A DNA stretch of 64,000 bases, from positions 1-64,000 of IMG/VR virus record IMGVR_UViG_3300045988_063132, one strand, 5' to 3'. Numbering within the stretch: the stretch's first letter is position 1; every line of letters begins with the position of its first letter. Below the pieces are notes generated by a model. The model searched no databases, was not told where the DNA came from, and was given only the letters and a program-made list of their open reading frames with translations. The position numbers and the translations under genes were made by a program. The DNA is from a virus. Shown here one piece after another: positions 1,696 to 58,003 of this stretch.

Positions 1696-2707
1696 AACCT
1701 AATAATAAAATTTTAAGTTCTTTTATACTATTTGTTCCTGTAAATCTCTTCCATAAATTAAAACAGTTACCATATTTACACCATCCCCAGTAAGAAGCTA
1801 AGGATCTAAATTTCTTATTAAGATTAACATATCTGGTTTTCCTATAGAACTTTTTTTTCATATCTTTTCTTAATTTCATATGACTATGTTTAAAAACATA
1901 GCCTAAGAAATCAACTCCTCTATCATCTACCGGATATATCTGCCAATCATGTTTTACTTCTAATTCAAGATATGAAGTCATATACTCCTTTATCTTTTGC
2001 AATGCCTGATGTAACTCTTTCTTATTAGAAGAAAATAGAACTATATCATCACAATATCTGAAATAATGTTTAATTTTTAATTTCTGCTTTACCCATCTAT
2101 CAAACCATGTTAAATAAAGATTAGCAGCAAACTGTGATATATAATTACCAATAGGTAATCCTTTATCTGTAGAATAAATTATCTCAGATATTAAATTCAG
2201 AAACCTCTTATCTTTGAATACTCTACTAAATAAATCCATCATAATCTTTTGATTCACAGAAGGAAAGAATTTCTTTACATCCAGTTTCAAACAATATTTA
2301 GTATTCTTTGGATCTGTTTTTAATGCGTGTTTCAATCTTTTTACTGCTAAGTGAATACCTCTGCCTTTAATACAACTGTAAGTATCTGAAGTAAACCGCT
2401 TAACTAAATAAGGTTCTATAACATTCATTATAGCGTGATGAGCTATACGGTCTGGAAAATAAGGTAACCTATATATTTCTCTTTCTTTATGACCTCTATC
2501 AGCAATAATAGTATAGATATCATATTCAGAAGTTTTATACGTACCTTCGATAAACATTCTTTGTAGTTTCAATAAATTCTCATGCGAATGTTTATCAAAT
2601 TTAGCAATACCATAACGTTTGCTTTTATTAAGTCTTGCTTTTTTATCTGCTAGAACAAGATTGTTAAAATCGATAATTCTATTGAAAATATTACCAATGC
2701 GTTTCAT
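1676..2707 (-). CDS. diversity-generating retroelement reverse transcriptase
   Basis: 343 aa. RT motif A is LDVKKFFPS. The DGR-specific motif LPIGNYISQFAANLYL (IGxxxSQ, which replaces the QGxxxSP of group II intron RTs) is present. The catalytic motif is YCDDIV, followed by an FLGY motif. The size and N-terminus are typical of DGR RTs. Confidence 0.85.
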   Translation of the reverse strand: MKRIGNIFNRIIDFNNLVLADKKARLNKSKRYGIAKFDKHSHENLLKLQRMFIEGTYKTSEYDIYTIIADRGHKEREIYRLPYFPDRIAHHAIMNVIEPYLVKRFTSDTYSCIKGRGIHLAVKRLKHALKTDPKNTKYCLKLDVKKFFPSVNQKIMMDLFSRVFKDKRFLNLISEIIYSTDKGLPIGNYISQFAANLYLTWFDRWVKQKLKIKHYFRYCDDIVLFSSNKKELHQALQKIKEYMTSYLELEVKHDWQIYPVDDRGVDFLGYVFKHSHMKLRKDMKKKFYRKTRYVNLNKKFRSLASYWGWCKYGNCFNLWKRFTGTNSIKELKILLLGYDKNCT

Positions 2708-2820
2708 TAGCTATTTTGGTGTTAGGACCCGTTCATCCAATACTACTAGGGTCCCTTCAAAGCACCTGTTATTTTTCACCAAGGGGTGAGGCTGATCTAA
2801 TTTATACAATAAAAACTTCC

Positions 2821-2925
2821 AAAATTTCACTGTGAACTGATATTCGAATTCGAATTCGATGAATCATTATTAGCATTCGAATAGAAGACTCTGCAATTAG
2901 ACTCATTGTCTGAATTACCTGACTT
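2821..2925 (-). repeat. DGR template repeat (TR)
   Basis: About 105 bp, located between the fiber gene stop and the RT start. It is collinear with 3069..3173 at a constant offset of 248 bp. On the coding (minus) strand the TR carries AAT codons at exactly the positions that differ in the VR. Confidence 0.8.
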
Positions 2926-3002
2926 ACTTTTTAATACATCTTCATCTAATCAAACCATTCTTTTAGATCCCGCCTTTGTTAATACTCTAGTTTATTATAG
3001 GT

Positions 3003-6000
3003 TTATCCATTAAACCCAGGCTCTAACGCCAAAAATTCATCTTTTGTTTTAACTACGATCTTACCATAAAAACCTAACCGCGAAACGAAATCCGAAGCCG
3101 AAGCCGACGAATCATCAAAAGCATACGAACAGAAGACCCCGCAATAAGACTCATTGTCCGAATAACCCGACCGCACAAAAATTCTGTTACCTGTATTATG
3201 ATGGTAGTAGTCTGCATAATATGTAGTATCTGATCCTCCTGTAGTGTTGCTTGGCACAACATCAGCGTATTCTCCGTGAGCAATGCCAACAATCCAACCA
3301 TCAGAAGAGGCAGCAGTATTGCTGCTAGAAGAGGCAACAATTTGTCTTACATTTGTATATCCTGCAGATGTTAAACCGGAAAGGTCAGTATTTACCTTAA
3401 GACCTCCATCGTACACTATCCATTGTCTACCAATAATATTAATTCCTTGTACGAATTCGTATTTACCATAATAACAATCTTCAAGACCTAAAAAATTACT
3501 ACTTTTACTAGACTTTCCATCCCTGTTACCTAATGACACTGTGGCACCTGTCGAACTATTCCAAGAACGTGTACCACCGGAACAAGGTATGCTACTATTA
3601 TCTGTACTTATATTCGTATTACCATATTTAGCACAGAATAAATTAGCAATAGTTTTATGGGCTCTATAATCAATCAATCCCCAATTTAAACCATTGGTTT
3701 GTGCTTGATTGAAAAAGGTTTCTATAGTTTGATTTCCAGTACTAGTCGTATTGGGTCTGCTGGTTAATTTACCGTCAGTATTATATGCTTCAAATACACC
3801 AATCAAACATTCTCTTTCTTCTTTATAAGAATCGGTAAGCTTTCTATCAGATATATACAATTTGAATTTACCTATACTCACTAGTTCTGTACGATAATAA
3901 TATTTAGGGAAATGAACCATGTAATATACATAATGATAAGCACCAGTACGGTTAACAGTAGAACCATCTTCCCATTTATTACTATCCGTAGAATTTAAAT
4001 AGGCAATAGCAGCAGAACCATCATCCTGAGGTAACGCTAAACATCTTTTAAATTTACTAGTAAGGTTAGTAATGATATCTAAATTACCACCTCTTTCTAG
4101 TGTAGTGGTACTTGTGGTTTCGTCAAATTGGACCCACATAGCGTGTGTTTCTTCATTGATCTGTTCCCAATCAAGAGTGACCTCTTTCACATCATCCAAA
4201 CTACTTATTTGAATAGTTTGAATCTCTGGGGTGATGTATCCTGCTACGGATATAGGTTCAATAGTCCAAGTTTCAGTAGTTGGTAATACAAATGTATTTT
4301 CATCAGTATCCCTTGTAACCAAAGTATAGGAACTTTCCTTTGGTACAGTATTAGAATACACATATACGTCTGCTAAACCGCTAATATCTTTTGCTAATTT
4401 TATTTTCAATTTAGCTCCTCGATACATTAATGTTTTTTCTTCAGCTACTCCATTTGCTGTAGAAGTTATAGAATCTGGTGTGACCCATTTCCTAAAATTA
4501 GGAGAACTAAAAATAGATACTTCAGTACCCTCAATAGTATATTGAGCACCAGTTGGAATTTTTACAGTATAGGTACGATTACCAGAAAGTGTTTTAGTTA
4601 CATAACCTGATAACTTTACATCAACCTTATTAGAAAGTAATTCAGGATGATTGCTAGTAACATTAATTGTTACAATTGTGGTATTATAAGTTAATGTTAT
4701 AATCCTAATATTACCTGCTTCTGCAATAAATGTTTGAGATTGTGGTTTAGCATAATCAGTTACATCACTACAAGTAATAGTATATGTAGTATTTACTGGA
4801 ATTGTGGCAGTAAGTTCAGTTCCTTCCCATGTAAGTACTTTAGAAGTTTCACCATAAGCTATAGTAATAGTAACACCATTAATGTTAGAATCTGATAACT
4901 GATTACTTGCAACAGTTATTTTAACAGTTTCATCTTTAGGTGCTGCTTCTACTTCTACCCATGTTCCATTCTGTCTAGCATACTGTTTACCATCTTTAGG
5001 TGCTTCTGTAACTACTAATTCATCAAAAGTATTGTCTGATAAGTCAACCCATATTTCTTGTTCGCCATCAGGTTGTGTACCTTCGCTTATATATACTTCA
5101 TCAGATATATCTGTTTTTAAAGCATACTCGTTGCCTTGTTTACCATCAAGTAAATCAGCATCTAAACCACTACCAACCCCATCTACTGTCTTTACTTTAG
5201 ATAATACATCTGTAGCAGTATATGCAGAAGAATCTAATTTTGTATTAACCTGAGTAGTAGTAGCATAACCCTTTGCATTTAATTCGGTTTCAGTTACATA
5301 TTCTTCAGGTACTGAAGTAAGATAATTGCCTTTTGGTTGATACGTACTAGCTGCATCAGTCTTAGTTAAATACCCATTAAGATCTACTGTTTCACTTAAC
5401 TTATCCCAATCTGGAGTAGTAGATGTGGCTACATAATTAGCTCCAGTATCTTCAAGATTATAAACATCACCGATATTTACATTTTGTTTAGGTAAGGCTT
5501 CATAATTAGCTACAGAACCTTTTACCTTATATACTGAACCTATAGCAGTGTTAATCTTCTGATCTAGCTCATCTGCAGAAGGTAATGCGTCAAGCTTCTC
5601 AAAATAGCTAGCCGTTAATACGCCTGCAGATTTAGAACTAGCCGAATTGAACGTAACAGACCCAGTAGTATAAATTGAACCAGTTATGACGTTTTTCTTA
5701 TCCAAAGAAAGGCCCATTGTATTCATACTCGTGGTAGAGCGCATTGTGGTCACATAGTCTACAATGTTACTTACCTTTTGTCTGTCATTATCGCTATAAT
5801 CATTAGTGCTTAGTCCTTTTCCTTCCTCCTTATCTACTTTGGTATCTAACTTACTGTCTACATAAGTTTTGTCAGCTTTACCAGAGATTTGTTCAGTAAC
5901 ATCTACTGCTGCTACAGTATCATCTACATACTTCTTAGTGGCAGGATGATAATCTGCAGTAGGTGTATATGTACTAGTATTGCTTTTAGATATATATCTA

Positions 6001-16742: not shown

Positions 16743-17867
16743 TTATGCCTCAACATCCATGATGAGCTCCCCACATGCACGGGGATCGAACAAGCAAATG
16801 CCCATCTCACCTAATAAATGCACGCTATAGCCATCCTTTGCGTTTGATCTAACTGTGCTTGCATTCTTACCATAACCTGCACCAGGAGCAACAGAACCTG
16901 AAGTATTCCAGATTACCATTTCACGATCTTTTCTAACTACCTTAACGATGTTAGATTTACCGTCTCTACGACCCAGATCCAAAAATGTCATTCTATAAGA
17001 TTCCAGCGGTTTACCAGAAACTGGATGCAACAAACGATTGTAAGTTGTATCATCATATAGCGGGAAGTGTTTCAATGTCAATTCGATACCATTAGTCATT
17101 TTGTAAGTAACAAACTGACCACCTAATACTAAAGACTGACCTGAACCAGTTACAAATTTAGTATCAATTAAATTCATAGTAACCGCTTTCTGTTTCAAAA
17201 CTCTATCGAATTCTCTCATACCCATTTCACCAGTCAGAGCAACAAACTTACGTTCATTAGTACCTAAAATATTATAAGACAGGTCAAACAAGAAATCTTC
17301 CAACAGTTCAGCTGTCAATTCAGTATAATAACGTCTATTAGACGGAGCAATCTGCTGCAACAAACCTGCAGGAATATATACCGGACGACCATTAGTACCC
17401 AGTAAAGAAGTAGAGCCATCTTTGTTTACGTTACTCTTGGAGTAAACTAACATACGTTCACATCTCTTAGACCATTCTCTCATAGCTTTCCATTCCTGAT
17501 AATCAGACCACAAGTAAGAAGTCTTACCTGTTTTAGGATCTTTTAAAGCGATCCACAGTACTGTAGAATAAGCTGTACCTGTAATATCATAATCCAGACG
17601 AGTAGTAAACAAGAAGTTTCTCATCTTGAAATGAGTATTATAGTTCAGGATATCGCCTTCTTCGCTGTATTCTTCATAAGCAGAAGCCAAACGAGATACC
17701 TGATGACCAGATACTAAATATTCACCAGGAATATAAGAACTAGATTGTCCATCAGCAATGAAACAAGTGTAAACCCATTCGTTACCATCCTGATAAGGTG
17801 CACCAGATACACGTACCTGATAGTTTCTGTCATCGAATTCCAAGATAGCACCAGGCTTTTTATTCAC
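16743..17867 (-). CDS. putative major capsid protein
   Basis: 374-aa ORF downstream of the portal and the scaffold-like gene. Assigned by size and position only. Confidence 0.4.
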   Translation of the reverse strand: MNKKPGAILEFDDRNYQVRVSGAPYQDGNEWVYTCFIADGQSSSYIPGEYLVSGHQVSRLASAYEEYSEEGDILNYNTHFKMRNFLFTTRLDYDITGTAYSTVLWIALKDPKTGKTSYLWSDYQEWKAMREWSKRCERMLVYSKSNVNKDGSTSLLGTNGRPVYIPAGLLQQIAPSNRRYYTELTAELLEDFLFDLSYNILGTNERKFVALTGEMGMREFDRVLKQKAVTMNLIDTKFVTGSGQSLVLGGQFVTYKMTNGIELTLKHFPLYDDTTYNRLLHPVSGKPLESYRMTFLDLGRRDGKSNIVKVVRKDREMVIWNTSGSVAPGAGYGKNASTVRSNAKDGYSVHLLGEMGICLFDPRACGELIMDVEA

Positions 17868-18600
17868 ACGGAGTCGTTAATTCCGCATCGCTAGTTTTAC
17901 TAGCAGCTACATCTTTCGATGTAGAATTGACTATATCACAATCCTTATTTAAAAAGGATTTCCAGTACTTCGGGTTACTTAACCCTACACCCTGGTTAGG
18001 GGTTAGTCGATGAACCTTCAAGTCTACTTTATCAACACGCAAACCTTTTAATAAACCAGCTTTTATATAAGCTCCTGTGTTTGCGTATTTTTGAATTAAT
18101 CCGTAAGTATATCCACTTATTCTAAATTGCTTACGTAGTTTACGAAAACCAAAAATAATAAATTGTTCATTATTATAAATGTTTGTAAAAACGTATGCTA
18201 TTTGTGGACCTTCTTTTGTTCTTATGGGTGGAGTATTACAAGTCACTTTAAACAAATTGTGTGTTTTTGCATGTTCTATGTTTTCTTCTGCAGTAACCCA
18301 TTCCAAGTTATTAAGATAGTTGTTTAATTTATCTCCATCTATATGATTAACTTGTTCTTTGTTATTAGGATTATCAATAAAAGTCATTGCAACTAATCTG
18401 TGTACTCTATAATCATATCTTTTATTATCTTTAGTAAAAGTAACATGTAAATAACCTCTTGGATTTTTAGTAGGTTTTAAAAACTTTTTACTTCGATGTG
18501 ACCATATTTTTCCATCTGTAGTACATGCATATAAATTTTCCCACCCAGGGATATCTTTCATTTCGTAGCCTTGCTCGGCTGCTGATTGTCCATTGTTCAT
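17860..18600 (-). CDS. HNH homing endonuclease
   Basis: NHIDGDKLNNYLNNLEWVTAEENIEHA (HNH_3-type motif). It overlaps the downstream capsid-candidate gene start by 8 nt. Confidence 0.65.
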   Translation of the reverse strand: MNNGQSAAEQGYEMKDIPGWENLYACTTDGKIWSHRSKKFLKPTKNPRGYLHVTFTKDNKRYDYRVHRLVAMTFIDNPNNKEQVNHIDGDKLNNYLNNLEWVTAEENIEHAKTHNLFKVTCNTPPIRTKEGPQIAYVFTNIYNNEQFIIFGFRKLRKQFRISGYTYGLIQKYANTGAYIKAGLLKGLRVDKVDLKVHRLTPNQGVGLSNPKYWKSFLNKDCDIVNSTSKDVAASKTSDAELTTPCE

Positions 18601-18702: not shown

Positions 18703-19089
18703 CTATGCTAAATAACCGAACCATTTATCTTCTAATGACAACATAATGGGAGTGTTACCCAAACCTGCCATAACTGTATCTGCATTAGCGGCAGTAATTT
18801 CTTGTCCATTCCACTTTGCAGAACGAATAGTTACAGCTCTATCGGTATCGATCATTACGTTCCATTCGTAATCTCTCTGATCAATTGACATTACATTACC
18901 AAGACCACCAGTAATAGCATCCAAAGACGTGCTATAACCATCATCTTTAGAACCAAATACATAAGAAATAACACGTGTTACTTCATACGGTCTAGTTAAC
19001 ATTGCATTTGAAATCATGTTTTCATCTACAAGATCTGAAAACCATTTACCTCTACCGATCTGTAAATTATTTAAAATTCCGTTATCCAT
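18703..19089 (-). CDS. hypothetical head protein
   Basis: 128-aa ORF between the scaffold-like gene and the HNH gene. Confidence 0.4.
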   Translation of the reverse strand: MDNGILNNLQIGRGKWFSDLVDENMISNAMLTRPYEVTRVISYVFGSKDDGYSTSLDAITGGLGNVMSIDQRDYEWNVMIDTDRAVTIRSAKWNGQEITAANADTVMAGLGNTPIMLSLEDKWFGYLA

Positions 19090-37735: not shown

Positions 37736-38081
37736 CAGTTTGCAACTTCATTATTTCTTCAGTGGCTGTACTTGCATGTGAATGTAGGTGCAGTCGTCCT
37801 TACTGTGAGAATCAGTGATAAACTTGTGGGGCTCATGTCTTATCAAAAGGGTGGCCAACTTTTAGATAGCATTAGTGCGGACGTTAAAATCAAGTAGATG
37901 ATAAGAATTGTACTGACAATACAATTCTGCTGTATCTTAAAACAAGTTTTGATAGTCAAATTTTCCTAAACCAATCCTCGTTATTAGGTAAAATTTCTTT
38001 TTGTTTACGTATTGCTACAACAATATCCTCACTGTTCATTCGTTATTTGCATTGTAGTTGTAGATACAATGCCGTCATCAA

Positions 38082-38549
38082 ATGTCAAATTTAAAAACAA
38101 TCCAAAAAATGAAAGGAATTGTATTAATTGTGATGCCAGATGCATCACAACACGTAGAAGTAAAAATACCTAATGGTATTACTCCTGCACAGTTTGATGC
38201 GATTATGAATCGTATTAAGCACGACTTCTTTACGACAGTAAAACCACAAGCTGATGCTGATTCATTAGTTGTTACAACTTATGATGAAAGTGAAGCAAAT
38301 GCTATACTGTCAAATGCAACATCTATTAATGCTGCAAAAGTATTAATTGACGTTGTAGGTAATCCTCAAGACTCTGATTGGAGTGGAAGATTCTTTACAC
38401 TCTATGGTAACGGAGATCCGAAAGTAGCACAAGCAATCTTATTCTTAAAACAGAATATGGATGCTTCAGCACAGAATTATCTTAAATCTAATGGTTTAGG
38501 ATGGTTATGTGACTTCTTAGGTCTTGGTATAACCAAATTTAGATTCTAA
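38082..38549 (+). CDS. hypothetical protein
   Basis: 155-aa ORF. Confidence 0.45.
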   Translation: MSNLKTIQKMKGIVLIVMPDASQHVEVKIPNGITPAQFDAIMNRIKHDFFTTVKPQADADSLVVTTYDESEANAILSNATSINAAKVLIDVVGNPQDSDWSGRFFTLYGNGDPKVAQAILFLKQNMDASAQNYLKSNGLGWLCDFLGLGITKFRF

Positions 38550-38671
38550 TGGGAAAGACATTCAAAGACATGAAAGCATCCAAATCTTTACGAGAAAATA
38601 AAAATTCTCATAAGAAGCGGATGCTTCCTTACAAGAGAGAGAATAAAAAATATGATGAAACTCGCCAGTAA
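38549..38671 (+). CDS. small basic protein (40 aa), translationally coupled
   Basis: ATG overlaps the upstream stop as TAATG. Sequence is MGKTFKDMKASKSLRENKNSHKKRMLPYKRENKKYDETRQ. It is below the ORF-track size cutoff. Confidence 0.3.
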   Translation: MGKTFKDMKASKSLRENKNSHKKRMLPYKRENKKYDETRQ

Positions 38672-38854
38672 CATCAAATATTTTTATTATATGGTGGTTA
38701 TCCCCAAGAAAGTGTAAAAGTCCAGAGTCCTAAGACAAATCAAAGCTATATGAAGATATATAGTACGTCGATAAAGTAGTTGGGATATTGTCGAAATAAG
38801 TTAAATGAATAAGACAAACACTTTCTTTTTATTCGCATCTTAAAACAATCAAAT

Positions 38855-39076
38855 ATGAAAAGTAAAAAGAAATTATTTTTGTGGTTATATATACCACAAA
38901 ATAGTAAAGTACAGTTTGATCCTTACAAGAGTTCTGTAACTCGAGTAGAAGTAGAATGTACTTTTAAAAAAGTGATACGTGATAAACATTCACCAATTGT
39001 AGAGTATACTTATACTCATCCACGACTTAATAAAAAGCTTACAGGTATAATACCTAAAGCTTTGTGGGAGGCATAA
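38855..39076 (+). CDS. hypothetical protein
   Basis: 73-aa ORF. Confidence 0.35.
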   Translation: MKSKKKLFLWLYIPQNSKVQFDPYKSSVTRVEVECTFKKVIRDKHSPIVEYTYTHPRLNKKLTGIIPKALWEA

Positions 39077-39077
39077 T

Positions 39078-39263
39078 ATGTTAAGAGAGATTATAGAATA
39101 TATAGTATTCTTCATATGGATCTTTGGCTTTGTTATGTCATATGCGTTTGGTGATATTCCTGCGATACTATATATCGTAATCTCTTTTATTATTATGGCT
39201 CGTATTCACATACGAGGCTTAAAGAAACTATTTTTATTAATAATTAAATCAATTAAAGAATAA
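39078..39263 (+). CDS. small membrane protein
   Basis: 61 aa with two hydrophobic segments. Confidence 0.35.
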   Translation: MLREIIEYIVFFIWIFGFVMSYAFGDIPAILYIVISFIIMARIHIRGLKKLFLLIIKSIKE

Positions 39264-39268
39264 AAAGT

Positions 39269-39640
39269 ATGAGTTGGAGTGATGAACTTGAAGAACAAAT
39301 TCTTTATCACTTTGGTAAAGATCCACCAAGTGAAGATAAAGATATAAAAAAGAAAGAAATCAAGAAAAAGATACGAGAAGAATTAAGTAAAAATCCAACA
39401 TTATCTAATATCCTAAAACAAAACAAGGCTGAAGGTAAATTCATAAAAGAATTTACTGATCAACTTATGGGATATAATTATAGTCCTAGAGATATAGGTA
39501 TTAGAATTACTTATGCTATAAAACATAGTTGTTGTCCAATAGATAATGCGTTATGTTGGAGAAATACTAGTCAAGGTCACAGTTATTGGAAAAAACTTAA
39601 TTCAATTGTATCAGAAAATCTAAGGAAAACAAAATTTTAA
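39269..39640 (+). CDS. hypothetical protein
   Basis: 123-aa ORF. Confidence 0.4.
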   Translation: MSWSDELEEQILYHFGKDPPSEDKDIKKKEIKKKIREELSKNPTLSNILKQNKAEGKFIKEFTDQLMGYNYSPRDIGIRITYAIKHSCCPIDNALCWRNTSQGHSYWKKLNSIVSENLRKTKF

Positions 39641-39675
39641 ACACTTATTTATTAACACTTTAAATTATCAAAATT

Positions 39676-40074
39676 ATGAGCGAAATTAAAGACGAAATTC
39701 GTAACGGTAGAATTATCAACAAAGAAGTAGTAACTGCAGCAGCTGAAGAACTGGCTAAGAAACGTAATGCGAAACTGACGAAAGAAATGATGCGTATTGC
39801 CGTTGATTCTGAGTTCGAACGCAAGAATGCATTATTGAATTTGCAGCGCAATCGTGATGAAGAAGATCCGATCAAGGCTTGTTTGAAAGCTAAAGAAGCA
39901 AATGAAATTGCAGTAAAAGAAGGAAAGATGACACCGGAAGAATTTCGTGAAGCAAATCGTAAAGCCGATGATGAAAAAGCTAAAGCTTTACGTAGTATTT
40001 CTGATGAATACTACACTCTGCGTAACCAGTTGCAGAAGCAGTGTTATGACGTCCTGAATGATTGGGATGATTAA
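39676..40074 (+). CDS. charged helical hypothetical protein (GC-richer codon usage)
   Basis: 132 aa. Noticeably more G/C-ending codons than neighbouring genes. Confidence 0.45.
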   Translation: MSEIKDEIRNGRIINKEVVTAAAEELAKKRNAKLTKEMMRIAVDSEFERKNALLNLQRNRDEEDPIKACLKAKEANEIAVKEGKMTPEEFREANRKADDEKAKALRSISDEYYTLRNQLQKQCYDVLNDWDD

Positions 40075-40089
40075 TAACAACTCCGAACC

Positions 40090-40406
40090 TGTGCCGACAA
40101 GTACTGTAAAGCTTATCAATTAATATTAGTGTCTTTACATTTGTAGAGACACTAATACTAGTTAGTGCCGAAAGTTATTAAACCGAATGGATTTAGTAGG
40201 TAATTAAGTTGAATTGACAACTTCCCTCAAGTGCTATATGCCGTAGGGTGGAAAAACAACGTGCCACTGATCATGTGCCGAAGATCATTACTATTGTTTT
40301 AGCTATTGTACTTTATGTCCTGCATAAAAACAATAGGCTCTACTTGTAGAGTTTTATAGTAATGGTTATCAAAACACATATAGAAATTGTGCTTTATGCC
40401 GAAGTT
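40090..40406 (+). promoter_or_regulatory. cluster of five TGCCGA(A/C)(A/G) motifs in an ORF-free region
   Basis: gtgccgacaag at 40090, agtgccgaaag at 40164, atgccgtagg at 40238, tgtgccgaaga at 40274 and tatgccgaagtt at 40395. Confidence 0.35.
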
Positions 40407-56424: not shown

Positions 56425-56742
56425 ATGATAGTATTACCTACAGAAAAAGTAAAAGCAAAAGTAAATAATCCTAGATTTTTGATTATTTACGGTCGACCTA
56501 AAACTGGTAAAACTAGTTGTGTAGCAGCTCTAGAGAATAATTTAATTATTGATCTAGAAGGTGGCTCTGAATTCTTAGATGCATTAGCAGTACAAGCAAG
56601 AACTGTTAATGATTTCGCTGAAATTGCAAATGCAATCAGAGAAAAGATCAAAGAAACAGGCAAAAAGCCCTATAAGTATATTACTATAGATAATGCTACA
56701 CGACTAGAAGAAATATGTCTATCTTACGCAGGTACGCTCTAA
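56425..56742 (+). CDS. Sak4-like AAA_24 ATPase, N-terminal segment (exon 1?)
   Basis: FLIIYGRPKTGKTS (Walker A) and ITIDNATRLEEI. The ORF stops after 105 aa, before any Walker B. Confidence 0.55.
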   Translation: MIVLPTEKVKAKVNNPRFLIIYGRPKTGKTSCVAALENNLIIDLEGGSEFLDALAVQARTVNDFAEIANAIREKIKETGKKPYKYITIDNATRLEEICLSYAGTL

Positions 56743-57535
56743 ATTTATGGAGCGCTATTTAGTAATGAATAGTGTAAAAGCTTTCTAATTTCTGGAACAT
56801 TTTACCTTTAAGTACGTTAAAGATACATTTAAAGTAAAAGGTAAAACAATCAGAAGCGAAGCAATGAAAGAAAAAACATTAAATAAATATATTGGTAAAA
56901 CTCATGGTGTATTAACTGTTATAGATTTAGACCATGAAACTTATGATAAAGAAAAACAAAGAAAACGAACTTATTTTAAATGCAAATGTAATAAATGTGG
57001 TAATATAACTATAGTAAGATCAGATAAATTAACTACTAAATATTGGATACCAAAGTGTTGTAATAATTGTGTCAATCAACAACAACACGAAACGGCAATA
57101 AAATTACATGAAAACGGTATTCCTAGTTATTTTAAAAAAAGAATTAGTTCTATTAAAGGAAATGCAAAAAGTAGAAATATAAATATGCAATTAACTAATA
57201 ATGAAATTTATAACATTATTCAAAAACCATGTTTCTATTGTAAAGAAAAAGAAGCATATGGAATAGATAGAATTGATTCTACAAAAGATTATACTATAGA
57301 TAATTGTGTACCTTGTTGTTTTATTTGCAATCGTATAAAAAATAAATATTCAATAGGTGTTTTTCTAGATAAAATAAGTAAAATATATAATAATTTTTTC
57401 ATTGAACGTTCAACGACTATCCCGAAAGGGAGTACATTACAAGCTAATGGTAATGGAAACGGAAGCATTCCTACTATTAATTAATAGGGAATATGATATA
57501 GTCTAATCTATATGGTGACATATAGCAGTTCATAA
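56743..57535 (+). mobile_element. intervening sequence with an HNH homing endonuclease (putative group I intron)
   Basis: Separates the two halves of one ATPase fold. Contains the HNH ORF 56864..57484. Confidence 0.5.
56864..57484 (+). CDS. HNH homing endonuclease
   Basis: Contains CKCNKCGN, YCKEKEAYGIDRIDSTKDYTIDNCVPCCFICNRIKNKYS. Confidence 0.65.
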   Translation: MKEKTLNKYIGKTHGVLTVIDLDHETYDKEKQRKRTYFKCKCNKCGNITIVRSDKLTTKYWIPKCCNNCVNQQQHETAIKLHENGIPSYFKKRISSIKGNAKSRNINMQLTNNEIYNIIQKPCFYCKEKEAYGIDRIDSTKDYTIDNCVPCCFICNRIKNKYSIGVFLDKISKIYNNFFIERSTTIPKGSTLQANGNGNGSIPTIN

Positions 57536-58003
57536 GAGAACGTATACAAATTTGCGAATTGTATAGAATATAATGATAAAGCTCAACCTCAAGGAAAATC
57601 TTGGCAAGGTACTGATGTTAGATTGCTTCCACAAGGAGCAGGATATCAATATATTAGACTTGCTGTAAGAAAAGTTATCGATATGTTTAAAGAACTTACT
57701 GATAACTTAATTCTTATTGGTCATACTAAGGATAAAATGATTAATAAGAATGGTGAGGATATGACAGAAATGTCCTTAGATCTTGTAGGTAAACTAGGAG
57801 ATATTATATGTGGAGAAGCTGATGCAGTAGGTTTTATGTATCGAAAAGGTAATGAAACAATTATTAATTTCGATAGTAAAGATGAAACTACAAAAGGAGC
57901 AAGAGCACCACATTTGCGTGAGCAAAAAATAGTAATTGCAGAAAGCAATGAAAACAATGAATTAGTATTTCATTGGGACAGAATTTATTTACCAGAAGTT
58001 TAA
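57536..58003 (+). CDS. Sak4-like AAA_24 ATPase, C-terminal segment (exon 2?)
   Basis: The frame is open from 57536, giving ENVYKFANCIEYNDKAQPQGKSW... before the track TTG start at 57623. Contains LILIGHTKDK (Walker B-like) and ICGEADAVGFMYRK, which are typical of AAA_24. Confidence 0.55.
   Translation, partial: ENVYKFANCIEYNDKAQPQGKSWQGTDVRLLPQGAGYQYIRLAVRKVIDMFKELTDNLILIGHTKDKMINKNGEDMTEMSLDLVGKLGDIICGEADAVGFMYRKGNETIINFDSKDETTKGARAPHLREQKIVIAESNENNELVFHWDRIYLPEV

Follow-up and report, generated by a model that had tools for sequence, protein, structure and literature searches.

The window analyzed here, the whole stretch of 64,000 nucleotides taken from an IMG/VR virus record, belongs to a crAss-like phage (Suoliviridae) of the human gut with about 98% identity to phage cr1_1. 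All parts of the interrupted gene and its intron described below lie on the plus strand. An AAA_24/Sak4-like ATPase gene (ATP_43b) is uninterrupted in cr1_1, and the gene order around the ATPase gene of the window matches the order DnaB, ATP_43b, primase. In the searchable text of Yutin et al. (2021, PMC7886860), ATP_43b is described as an AAA-domain ATPase encoded between DnaB and primase and as belonging to a set of four replication genes that are highly conserved in crAss-like phages.

In the window, the ATPase is encoded in two pieces on either side of a third open reading frame. The first ORF (56425..56742) is 105 aa long, carries the Walker A motif GRPKTGKTS and matches positions 5-84 of the 195 positions of the Pfam AAA_24 profile (E 6.3e-15). 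It is followed by an ORF of 206 aa (56864..57484) and by a frame that opens at 57536, directly after a TAA (57533-35), and ends with a stop codon at 58001-58003. This last frame contains LILIGHTKDK and ICGEADAVGFMYRK and matches AAA_24 profile positions 80-192 (E 1.1e-11). All three frames were found as claimed in an earlier note on this DNA. Since the two ATPase pieces cover contiguous profile positions, they were counted in favor of a single gene interrupted by an intron. The joined protein matches AAA_24 over profile positions 5-191 of 195 with 98.1 bits (cut-off 27; E 7.9e-28), which agrees with the note's view that both pieces make up one protein of AAA_24 size, and it matches PHROG 124 (‘Sak4-like ssDNA annealing protein’) at 6e-30. 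The score of the ATPase against NCBIfam phage_P_loop was under the cut-off. Going by the family name, the protein may act in single-strand annealing or as a recombination mediator.

Boundaries of the insertion and the restored reading frame

An alignment to intact AAA_24 homologues had been proposed in the earlier note as a way to locate the insertion site. Intact homologues of 246-248 aa, including P0001 (95% identity to the provisional joined query) and the cr1_1 protein, fix the junction to a single nucleotide and place the insertion at 56741..57575. The interruption itself is thus real, but it measures 835 nt and not about 790 nt as had been claimed. Its G+C content is 25%, compared with 32-33% in the exons. 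Excision of 56741-57575 leaves an ORF of 744 nt, equal in length to the intron-less cr1_1 gene and 98.4% identical to it. The joined exons read ...CUC U-AU AAA... (L-Y-K) and encode a product of 247 aa. The predicted ligated junction is GGTACGCTCT followed directly by ATAAAGCTCAACC, and the cr1_1-type intron-less sequence around the insertion site is GGTACTCTCTATAAAGCTCAACC.

Exon 1 (56425..56740) consists of codons 1-105 and the first base of codon 106. It holds the Walker A motif and a DNATRLEE motif and is colinear with the intact cr1_1 gene (L005, 1626-2369). Its last base is U56740, and the TAA that ends the first ORF is composed of this base and the first two bases of the intron. Exon 2 (57576..58003) completes codon 106 with two bases (AU) and continues with codons 107-247 up to and including the stop codon. 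Its assignment is based on the AAA_24 profile match, the homologue alignment and a nucleotide junction that is the same as in intron-less alleles. The frame that opens at 57536 is therefore open, as the note had it, but its beginning does not code for the ATPase: positions 57536-57575 are intron (P9.1/P9.2 and the 3' end, terminating in G57575). The first start codon in exon 2 is a TTG at 57623. In all eight related introns, a U precedes the 5' splice site and a G stands directly before the 3' splice site, the spliced frames are full-length and the endonuclease ORFs are intact.

Ribozyme structure and its conservation

The sequences flanking the endonuclease ORF form a complete group I core, comprising P2 to P9.2 with a P3/P7 pseudoknot plus P7.1/P7.2 hairpins. 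P1 (56735..56754) is formed by exon CGCUCU (56735-40) and the internal guide GGAGCG (56749-54) and includes the wobble pair U56740.G56749 at the 5' splice site. It has 6 bp here and just 4 contiguous bp in most relatives; the 4-bp core CUCU/GGAG is kept in the relatives, with a compensatory CUGU/GCAG in L011. The U.G pair is seen in five of six aligned relatives, the sixth (L010) showing a 2-nt alignment shift. The J1 loop (56741-48) contains the strand UUUAU (56744-48), which forms a P10 of 5 bp with AUAAA of exon 2 (57576-80). P10 is compensated in L007, extends to 8 bp in L012 and is weak or not conserved in L009-L011. The P2 hairpin (56755..56772) has 7 bp, five of which show compensatory changes, and a GUAA (GNRA) loop, with GAAA loops in the same register in relatives.

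The 5' strand of P3, GCUUUC (56780..56785), pairs across the ORF with GGAAGC (57461-57466). All P3 cells are paired (100%), with both sides changed in four of six pairs (GCUUUC/GGAAGC versus UUCCCU/GGGGAA). The P4-P5 domain (56790..56855) is 100% paired and mostly invariant. P4 is formed by UUCUGG (56790-95) and UCAGAA (56850-55), and P5, whose strands enclose an extended arm, by UUUUACC (56800-06) and GGUAAAA (56840-46); both helices are found in the minimum free energy (MFE) fold, and P4 reads UGCUG/CAGCA in cr50_1 and L012. The 5' strands of P6 and P6a follow at 56856..56866. P6 pairs GCG (56856-58) with CGU (57407-09), its third pair being G-C, C-G or U-A depending on the lineage, while P6a pairs CAAUG (56862-66) with CAUUG (57400-04), is also found in the MFE fold and has 5-7 bp in relatives as judged by eye. 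The AUG of the endonuclease sits inside P6a, so that the ORF is looped out of this element.

The 3' core was delineated by the Rfam alignment and by compensatory changes. Its first part (57400..57466) contains P6a'/P6', J6/7, the P7 5' strand GACUA (57415-19), P7.1 (57420-31, GAAA loop, one compensatory pair), P7.2 (57435-55, three compensatory pairs) and the 3' strand of P3. The second part (57467..57525) contains P8 (57467-71/57488-92, compensatory changes in three of five pairs), the P7 3' strand UAGUC (57499-503) within the conserved GAUAUAGUCUAAUCU, and P9 (57508-14/57519-25, GUGA loop, compensatory changes in three of seven pairs). The peripheral 3' elements (57528..57575) are P9.1 (GUUC 57528-31/GAAC 57538-41), P9.2 (57543-49/57559-65, UGCG loop, compensatory changes in five of seven pairs) and the terminal G57575 (omega-G). 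The pairings from P1 to P9 and the omega-G that the earlier note suggested looking for are thus present and backed by covariation, as are P9.2, P10 and the U.G pair. Because of P7.1/P7.2 between P7 and P3', which we take to be a mark of phage IA2 introns, the intron was assigned as IA2-like.

Covariation was assessed on a hand-built structure of 69 pairs in six same-site introns with 68-98% identity. Among these, 96.9% of the cells are paired, versus 39-50% when the partners are slid, and both-side (compensatory) changes occur in 26 of the 69 pairs, versus 2-5 when slid. The observed covariation score was reached by none of 500 shuffles. P4, P5 and P7 are invariant across the same-site introns and add no covariation information. 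The pair count omits P6a and the inner pairs of P9.2, where indels shift the register between lineages, as well as P10, owing to its lack of conservation in L009-L011. When the ORF-deleted intron was folded independently by MFE, P1-P6a, P7.1, P7.2, P8, P9 and P9.1 were recovered (z -3.5).

A search with the Rfam group I and group II models had likewise been proposed. The group I model (RF00028) matches the 3' core only (57351-57525; 35 bits, E 8.5e-7). This falls short of the gathering score of 50, as the two halves of the ribozyme, 5' and 3', are set apart by the 533-nt ORF loop, and the Rfam alignment mis-places P1-P3 inside the ORF. At the gathering threshold, no group I match was obtained across the window, so the E-value mode was required. 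Group II introns gave no Rfam match at E<=10, and no other family was found either. Another intron of the window, without an ORF in the sense direction, scores 63 bits against Rfam group I in E-value mode.

The endonuclease and the distribution of the intron

The intron ORF (56864..57484) extends 85 nt into the core: the ribozyme core from P6' to P8 doubles as coding sequence for the last ~24 residues of the protein, with the stop codon in the P8 loop. The protein has a beta-rich N-terminal domain with Cys pairs and, by profile and predicted fold, is a PacI-type His-Me finger (‘HNH’) nuclease with the residues C123, C126, D135, R136, Y143, N147, C152, C155, N156 and K159. The beta-beta-alpha-metal fold with zinc-binding Cys pairs of a His-Me finger is found, and the invariant C, C, D-R, Y, N, C, C, N and K match aligned R.PacI. 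The earlier designation as an HNH endonuclease holds for the superfamily but not for canonical HNH enzymes. The catalytic His of H-N-H is absent, its position being taken by D135-R136, the Pfam HNH profile (PF01844) scores 16.2 bits (cut-off 21.4), and Y143, which is invariant, stands opposite the Tyr of PacI in the alignment; for these reasons the protein was filed as PacI-type (group 20). No HNH_3 or NUMOD match was found in the endonuclease, R.PacI being the closest relative, and all 92 homologues lack a precomputed Pfam domain. An HNH_3/NUMOD-type enzyme is encoded in a different intron of the window (17860-18600). PacI is an active enzyme in which a Tyr replaces the catalytic His (PMC5714182, PMC3384342). 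His-Me finger group 20 was described by Jablonska et al. (2017, PMC5714182) as consisting mostly of giant-virus proteins, with no mention of an intron or homing role. The PacI branch, for which there is no Pfam family, has been characterized as an orphan restriction enzyme that cuts rarely, together with these viral proteins.

Intron presence in other phages was scored by exact junction patterns and not by a spliced-protein search. The latter returned uninterrupted genes only for related loci, because full-length matches rank first, and gives no intron frequency. Near-identical phages occur both with and without the intron: intron-less alleles are found in cr1_1, cr55_1, L001-L003 and 13 IMG/VR contigs, and intron-bearing ones in the window, L006 and L112-L119. 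This is a presence/absence polymorphism at one precise site, by which a mobile intron is recognized. The three-ORF arrangement is repeated on many independent contigs, exon haplotypes are common to intron-plus and intron-minus alleles, and the intron resides on several such haplotypes. Exon 1 holds 10 of the 12 positions that differ from cr1_1, and G56736 perfects P1; the same base is also present in the intron-less contig L030. A co-conversion tract was considered as a signature and rejected, as a wider sample revealed mosaic haplotypes in both intron-plus and intron-minus alleles. Insertions of related intron/enzyme pairs are seen at about five sites of the ATPase gene and at one in PolB. 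Hundreds of phage records contain cores with 70-82% identity to the 3' core, and some of these carry the annotation Intron_gpI or a spliced CDS. An ‘ATPase’ of Pseudoalteromonas phage pYD6-A, with a similar annotated intron, was discarded since that gene is not homologous to the ATPase gene of the window.

Interpretation and relation to known introns

Taken together, 56741-57575 is very probably a mobile, self-splicing group I intron of IA2-like type that interrupts the AAA_24/Sak4-like ATPase gene (ATP_43b) of a Suoliviridae crAss-like phage, and the earlier proposal of a group I intron with an endonuclease is supported by splice sites, full core, covariation and intact homologues. From these features we infer catalysis, the enzyme target and homing as follows. 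The ATPase gene would be transcribed together with the intron, and the last six exon bases, CGCUCU, would pair with the guide GGAGCG to make P1. A free guanosine held in P7 would attack after U56740; G57575 would next occupy the guanosine site while P10 (AUAAA/UUUAU) aligns exon 2, and the exons would be ligated as ...CUC U-AU AAA..., giving an mRNA for the intact 247-aa ATPase. Unspliced RNA would end translation at once because of the UAA formed across the splice site. In a mixed infection, the PacI-type enzyme most likely cleaves or nicks alleles that lack the intron, for example the one reading GGTACTCTCT before and ATAAAGCTC after the insertion point, and repair templated by an intron-bearing genome would copy the intron in (homing).

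The earlier note had offered an intron-less split gene as an alternative, in which a free-standing HNH gene was inserted and the halves are translated separately into a two-piece ATPase, similar to nrdA of phage Aeh1, which is split by mobE. In relatives, gene callers and RefSeq indeed give three separate CDSs, and the N piece ends in its own stop codon. This reading is nevertheless extremely improbable, as the halves are nowhere conserved as two separate genes, initiation at TTG 57623, the first available start, would delete about 27 conserved residues, excision restores the frame to the nucleotide, and a free-standing gene has no need of flanks that adopt a full group I core structure with 26 compensatory pairs, kept by compensatory changes in relatives at 68-72% identity. 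Stop-codon read-through was rejected on sequence, neither of the only two tRNAs, Lys-UUU and Val-CAC, being a suppressor. An intein or a group II intron would share with the locus an endonuclease ORF within a conserved gene and nothing more, and we discard both: the insert has host-frame stops from the junction UAA on and no Hint domain match, its ORF encodes a nuclease and not a reverse transcriptase, and no Rfam group II match exists at E<=10.

A group I intron that has decayed, with splicing lost and the ATPase being a pseudogene in this phage, would fit the Rfam score under the gathering score and a P1 of merely 4 contiguous bp in many relatives, yet it is very unlikely given that both exons are intact and conserved in intron-carrying lineages down to 68% nucleotide identity, that the pairings are maintained via compensatory changes, that the intron allele is common in many samples and that the searchable text of Yutin et al. 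(2021, PMC7886860) counts ATP_43b among the four highly conserved replication genes. Somewhat more room, though still little, is left for a splicing-competent intron whose ORF no longer drives homing (inactive or maturase-like) and which spreads by ordinary recombination during co-infection. The missing canonical His, the sub-cut-off Pfam HNH score and the lack of a consistent co-conversion tract in the exon haplotypes would agree with it. On the other side, the invariant residues equal those of R.PacI, an active Tyr-using enzyme, the dN/dS of 0.08-0.41 indicates purifying selection on the ORF, and both the occurrence of the intron on several haplotypes that are also found intron-less and the related pairs at about five sites here and one in PolB fit active mobility. 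If the phage protein is active as a homing endonuclease, the PacI branch might represent an unrecognized family of homing endonucleases, with one lineage re-targeted to about five sites in a 744-bp gene and to PolB; we put this forward tentatively, as a possibility slightly short of even.

Yutin et al. [quoted passage not shown] The phage family and the host gene are the same as here, and so is the kind of element, including an endonuclease ORF. A group I intron in ATP_43b of this phage family is thus already known and is an ordinary kind of phage element. Those introns were detected via endonuclease domains, and the searchable text and supplements give them without splice sites, ribozyme structure or endonuclease sub-family, whereas here splice sites and structure are given to the nucleotide, with covariation.

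Related introns in the same gene, with the same endonuclease family, are those of cr50_1 (NC_055868; L004 2092-3096), L012, L121 and L122. They have the same boundaries (U before the 5' and G before the 3' splice site), but other insertion sites and a different P1/P2 and N-terminal part of the enzyme. The cr50_1 intron is inserted after GHTKD (codon ~158) and that of L121 about four codons beyond; L012 has its insertion between NP and RF, immediately before Walker A, and L122 between residues ~110 and 129. Over 314 nt, the 3' core together with the region coding for the C-terminus of the enzyme is 78% identical to cr50_1; for the 3' core by itself the identity is 85%. RefSeq annotates the cr50_1 locus as three CDSs (‘nucleotide-binding protein,’ ‘HNH endonuclease’ and ‘hypothetical protein’) and no intron.

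The T4 td and nrdB introns and other phage IA2 introns have P7.1/P7.2, an ORF looped from the P6 region and an early intron stop, and T4 td/nrdB-type introns interrupt conserved genes of nucleotide metabolism or replication. The ATPase intron of the window shares these traits but differs in host gene and phage lineage. Its core S-element GAUAUAGUCUAAUCU matches the Rfam consensus, and BLAST matches with 70-80% identity to its core come from Staphylococcus, Bacillus, Vibrio and T4-like phage records. The T4 td intron encodes the GIY-YIG enzyme I-TevI, in contrast to the PacI-type His-Me finger found here, whose ORF runs 85 nt into the core. The group I intron in the DNA polymerase gene of SPO1/SP82, with the HNH nicking endonucleases I-HmuI/I-HmuII, is similar in that it too lies in a phage replication gene and carries an HNH-superfamily homing enzyme; I-HmuI is of the HNH_3/NUMOD type, unlike the endonuclease of the ATPase intron. 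R.PacI (PDB 3LDY/3M7K) is a free-standing bacterial restriction enzyme, whereas the endonuclease described here is intron-encoded, carries an additional domain of about 60 aa at its N-terminus and presumably recognizes a long phage target.

The PacI-type enzyme and the spread over several sites are modest additions to known introns, and the understanding of phage introns is unchanged. The main value lies in annotation: gene callers and RefSeq split a conserved replication/recombination ATPase into three unrelated-looking CDSs, which distorts gene counts, core-gene phylogenies and protein clustering in one of the most abundant groups of human-gut viruses, and exact splice coordinates permit the 247-aa protein to be rebuilt. 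The PacI-type family could yield new long-target nucleases and, if its members are active in homing, would provide a compact natural series for the joint change of guide and enzyme specificity. For the phages themselves, the polymorphism of the intron on exon haplotypes common to both kinds of allele marks co-infection and gene flow among gut phages.

The split ATPase gene and its predicted splice sites

The ATPase gene ATP_43b is interrupted at the position where the earlier note had suspected a split. Its 105-aa N-terminal ORF (56425–56742) with the Walker A motif GRPKTGKTS and the internal 206-aa ORF (56864–57484) were confirmed. The frame opening at 57536 is indeed open up to the stop codon at 58001–58003 and encodes LILIGHTKDK and ICGEADAVGFMYRK. 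The outer pieces match contiguous positions of Pfam AAA_24 (5–84, E 6.3e-15, and 80–192, E 1.1e-11), score 98 bits when joined, as proposed for one AAA_24 protein, and both belong to phrog_124 (‘Sak4-like ssDNA annealing protein’). Judged by these matches, the split is real and no chance resemblance.

BLAST against phage records identified the window as a crAss-like phage (Suoliviridae/Boorivirinae). Its relatives cr1_1 (Culoivirus americanus) and cr55_1 are about 98% identical to the window, and both encode the ATPase as a single CDS of 744 nt. A search with a provisional joined protein yielded thousands of intact homologues of 246–248 aa, the best being 95% identical to that query, and the alignment to such homologues that had been suggested locates the break at ...YAGTL|YK|AQPQ.... 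A single cut brings the expected residues back in frame, with U56740 as the final base of exon 1, 56741–57575 as the insert and A57576 as the first base of exon 2; no other cut does so. The ligated junction reads CUC U|AU AAA GCU (L-Y-K-A), and its surroundings equal the cr1_1 sequence except for single-base exon differences. The spliced gene has the length of the cr1_1 gene and is 98.4% identical to it. The intervening segment is thus present, with a size of 835 nt instead of the roughly 790 nt estimated before, since the cut assigns 57536–57575, which had been counted as coding, to the intron.

Ribozyme core and covariation

The Rfam group I model RF00028 matches 57351–57525 (35 bits, E 8.5e-7), spanning J6/7-P7, P3′, P8, the conserved GAUAUAGUCUAAUCU and P9. 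The score lies under the gathering score of 50 bits because the ORF parts the two halves of the ribozyme. Helices were assigned by hand and their coordinates verified against the sequence; the P1 to P9 pairings and the omega-G (G57575) that the earlier note proposed to look for were all found on the + strand. P1 pairs CGCUCU (56735–40) with GGAGCG (56749–54), placing U56740.G56749 at the splice site, while P10 pairs AUAAA (57576–80) with UUUAU (56744–48). They are followed by P2 (56755–72, GUAA loop), P3 (56780–85/57461–66), P4 (56790–95/56850–55), P5 (56800–06/56840–46), P6 (56856–58/57407–09) and P6a (56862–66/57400–04), which encloses the ORF. The 3′ part comprises P7 (57415–19/57499–503), P7.1 (57420–31, GAAA loop), P7.2 (57435–55), P8 (57467–71/57488–92), P9 (57508–25, GUGA loop), P9.1 (57528–41) and P9.2 (57543–65, UGCG loop). 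P7.1/P7.2 are a mark of IA2-type introns, the type characteristic of phages. When the ORF-deleted intron was folded without constraints, the MFE structure (-71.5 kcal/mol, z -3.5) contained all nested helices except P9.2, where a shifted hairpin formed.

A search of IMG/VR with the endonuclease protein added five lineages in which this intron occupies the identical position, all of them colinear with the window across exon, intron and exon. One (L006) shares 98% nucleotide identity with the window and the others (L007/L008, L009, L010 and L011) 68–72%. In an ORF-deleted alignment of six same-site introns, with P3/P7 entered as a pseudoknot, 96.9% of 414 cells are paired versus 39–50% after the 3′ partners have been shifted by 1–3 columns. 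Both sides changed in 26 of 69 pairs versus 2–5 after the shift, a five-fold excess over every control that is robust to the structure being derived from one of the aligned sequences and to the kinship of these sequences. None of 500 shuffles reached the observed covariation score. Compensatory changes affect P1 (CUCU/GGAG versus CUGU/GCAG in L011), P2 (five pairs), P3 (four), P6 (one), P7.1 (one), P7.2 (three), P8 (three), P9 (three) and P9.2 (five); P4, P5 and P7 are invariant and thus uninformative either way. Each of the eight related introns is bounded by U|...G|, contains an intact internal ORF and, once excised, leaves a full-length ATPase frame.

By eye, the 5′ strand of P6a terminates in the AUG of the endonuclease in the window and its same-site relatives, where P6a has 5–7 bp (it was left out of the pair count owing to indels). 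Ribozyme folding would therefore hide this start codon, making translational control of the endonuclease possible.

The element is very probably a group I intron that splices itself out and encodes a homing endonuclease, as had been put forward, given its canonical boundaries, full core, covarying pairs and restored 744-nt frame; splicing and homing are activities that we infer from sequence. The Rfam search gave no match to group II introns or another RNA family at the intron. The alternatives, namely a gene in two separate pieces, a dead intron, an intein or a group II intron, are virtually excluded. An assembly artefact is refuted by the arrangement (105-aa AAA_24 piece, 206-aa ORF, 106-aa AAA_24 piece), which recurs in different samples on numerous long, independent contigs.

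The endonuclease and its insertion sites

The endonuclease scores 16.2 bits against Pfam HNH, below the cut-off of 21.4, and no Pfam domain is assigned to any of its 92 homologues in the database. It does match the PHROG families ‘endonuclease VII’ and ‘HNH endonuclease’ (1e-14 to 1e-10). PacI belongs to His-Me finger ‘group 20’, which has no Pfam family; it lacks the catalytic His, for which an omega-loop Tyr substitutes (PMC5714182). Y143 of the endonuclease aligns with this Tyr. The last 24 residues (183–206) are predicted to be disordered and correspond exactly to the overlap of the ORF with the ribozyme core, which runs from P6′ to P8 and places the stop codon in the P8 loop. The ORF thus merely reads through the core, and the sequence there is dictated by the RNA, not by the protein. 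Upstream of this overlap, dN/dS between lineages is 0.08–0.41, which indicates purifying selection on a presumably active enzyme.

Exact-junction scans of IMG/VR detected the intron junction on one contig and the intron-less junction on 13. Among alleles with 97–100% identity to the window (22 or fewer differences per 744 nt), the same mosaic exon haplotypes occur with and without the intron. Such a pattern would result from recurrent gain through homing or from recurrent loss; these alleles show no consistent co-conversion tract.

Related introns and enzymes occupy other sites of the ATPase gene: after GHTKD in cr50_1 (L004, 2092–3096), about four codons past that site in L121, immediately ahead of Walker A, between NP and RF, in L012 (1372–2194, with an 8-bp P10) and between residues ~110 and 129 in L122. 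Another lies in the PolB gene of cr53_1. The window, cr50_1 and L012 sites fall in or beside residues strongly conserved among the intact homologues, the usual pattern for homing elements. In L122 (a Logan SRR8387715 contig, 2092–4277), about 1.5 kb separates two ATP_43b exon matches and contains one PacI-type endonuclease ORF. Two separate intron 3′ core matches (3282–3367 and 3669–3702) suggest that this gap may hold two tandem introns. The N-terminal exon match contains an in-frame stop (LLIK*QP), which could reflect stop-codon recoding.

Other RNA elements and published introns

A second complete group I core is located at 40927–41171 (+), missed in gathering mode although its 63 bits exceed the Rfam threshold. 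Its host gene is not obvious, as no + strand ORF of at least 50 aa lies between 40074 and 42008. A canonical HNH endonuclease ORF (41099–41608, −; PF01844, 2e-13) overlaps its 3′ end on the opposite strand, and a tRNA-Lys(UUU) follows at 41902–41972. Just upstream, a block rich in non-coding RNAs with interleaved small ORFs (37796–40286, +) comprises a Hatchet ribozyme (37796–37895, +, 76.5 bits), RAGATH-9 (38694–38828, +, 58.5 bits, below threshold), RAGATH-22 (40094–40273, +, 125.6 bits) and an overlapping sub-threshold RAGATH-20 match. In the near-identical phage L006 (IMGVR_UViG_3300045988_060660), the Rfam tRNA model matches 119 nt (3389–3507, 40.7 bits), far more than the length of a normal tRNA. 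This match is intergenic and lies upstream of the primase gene; no tRNA was found at the corresponding window position.

An ORF with NUMOD4 and HNH_3 (I-HmuI-like; 17860–18600, −) contains a weak group I match (17907–18154, −, 28.7 bits, E 0.0025). The flanking ORFs (18703–19089 and 16743–17867, both −) look like pieces of one large gene, for which the major capsid protein is our guess; this gene is described as intron-bearing in Delta-group phages (Yutin et al., 2021, PMC7886860).

That paper reports group I introns in ATP_43b of Delta-group phages, defines ATP_43b as the AAA-domain ATPase and presents a gene order that is the reverse of the window's. The introns were detected through endonuclease domains, and the searchable text and supplements specify neither splice sites nor RNA structure nor the sub-family of the enzyme. 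A 2023 Crassvirales review makes the same point for MCP, PolB and primase, leaves ATP_43b unnamed and treats the Delta group as equivalent to Suoliviridae. In RefSeq, the cr50_1 ATPase (NC_055868, 1618–3369) is annotated as three CDSs (‘nucleotide-binding protein’, ‘HNH endonuclease’ and ‘hypothetical protein’), and the cr53_1 PolB (L018, NC_055889, 607–3419) as two ‘DNA polymerase’ CDSs flanking an ‘HNH endonuclease’; both split genes contain the same intron/enzyme family as the window. Hundreds of phage records contain cores that share 70–82% identity with this ribozyme core, among them records of Staphylococcus, Bacillus, Vibrio, T4-like and Lak phages. The N4-like phage pYD6-A has a similar core in an annotated spliced ATPase, but this ATPase is not homologous to that of the window.

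An intron in ATP_43b of Suoliviridae phages is therefore an already published phenomenon, and the element is of an ordinary, reported kind. Our analysis adds nucleotide-exact splice sites, a covariation-backed structure and the identification of the enzyme as PacI-type, and it reveals that one intron/enzyme lineage uses about five sites in one small gene.
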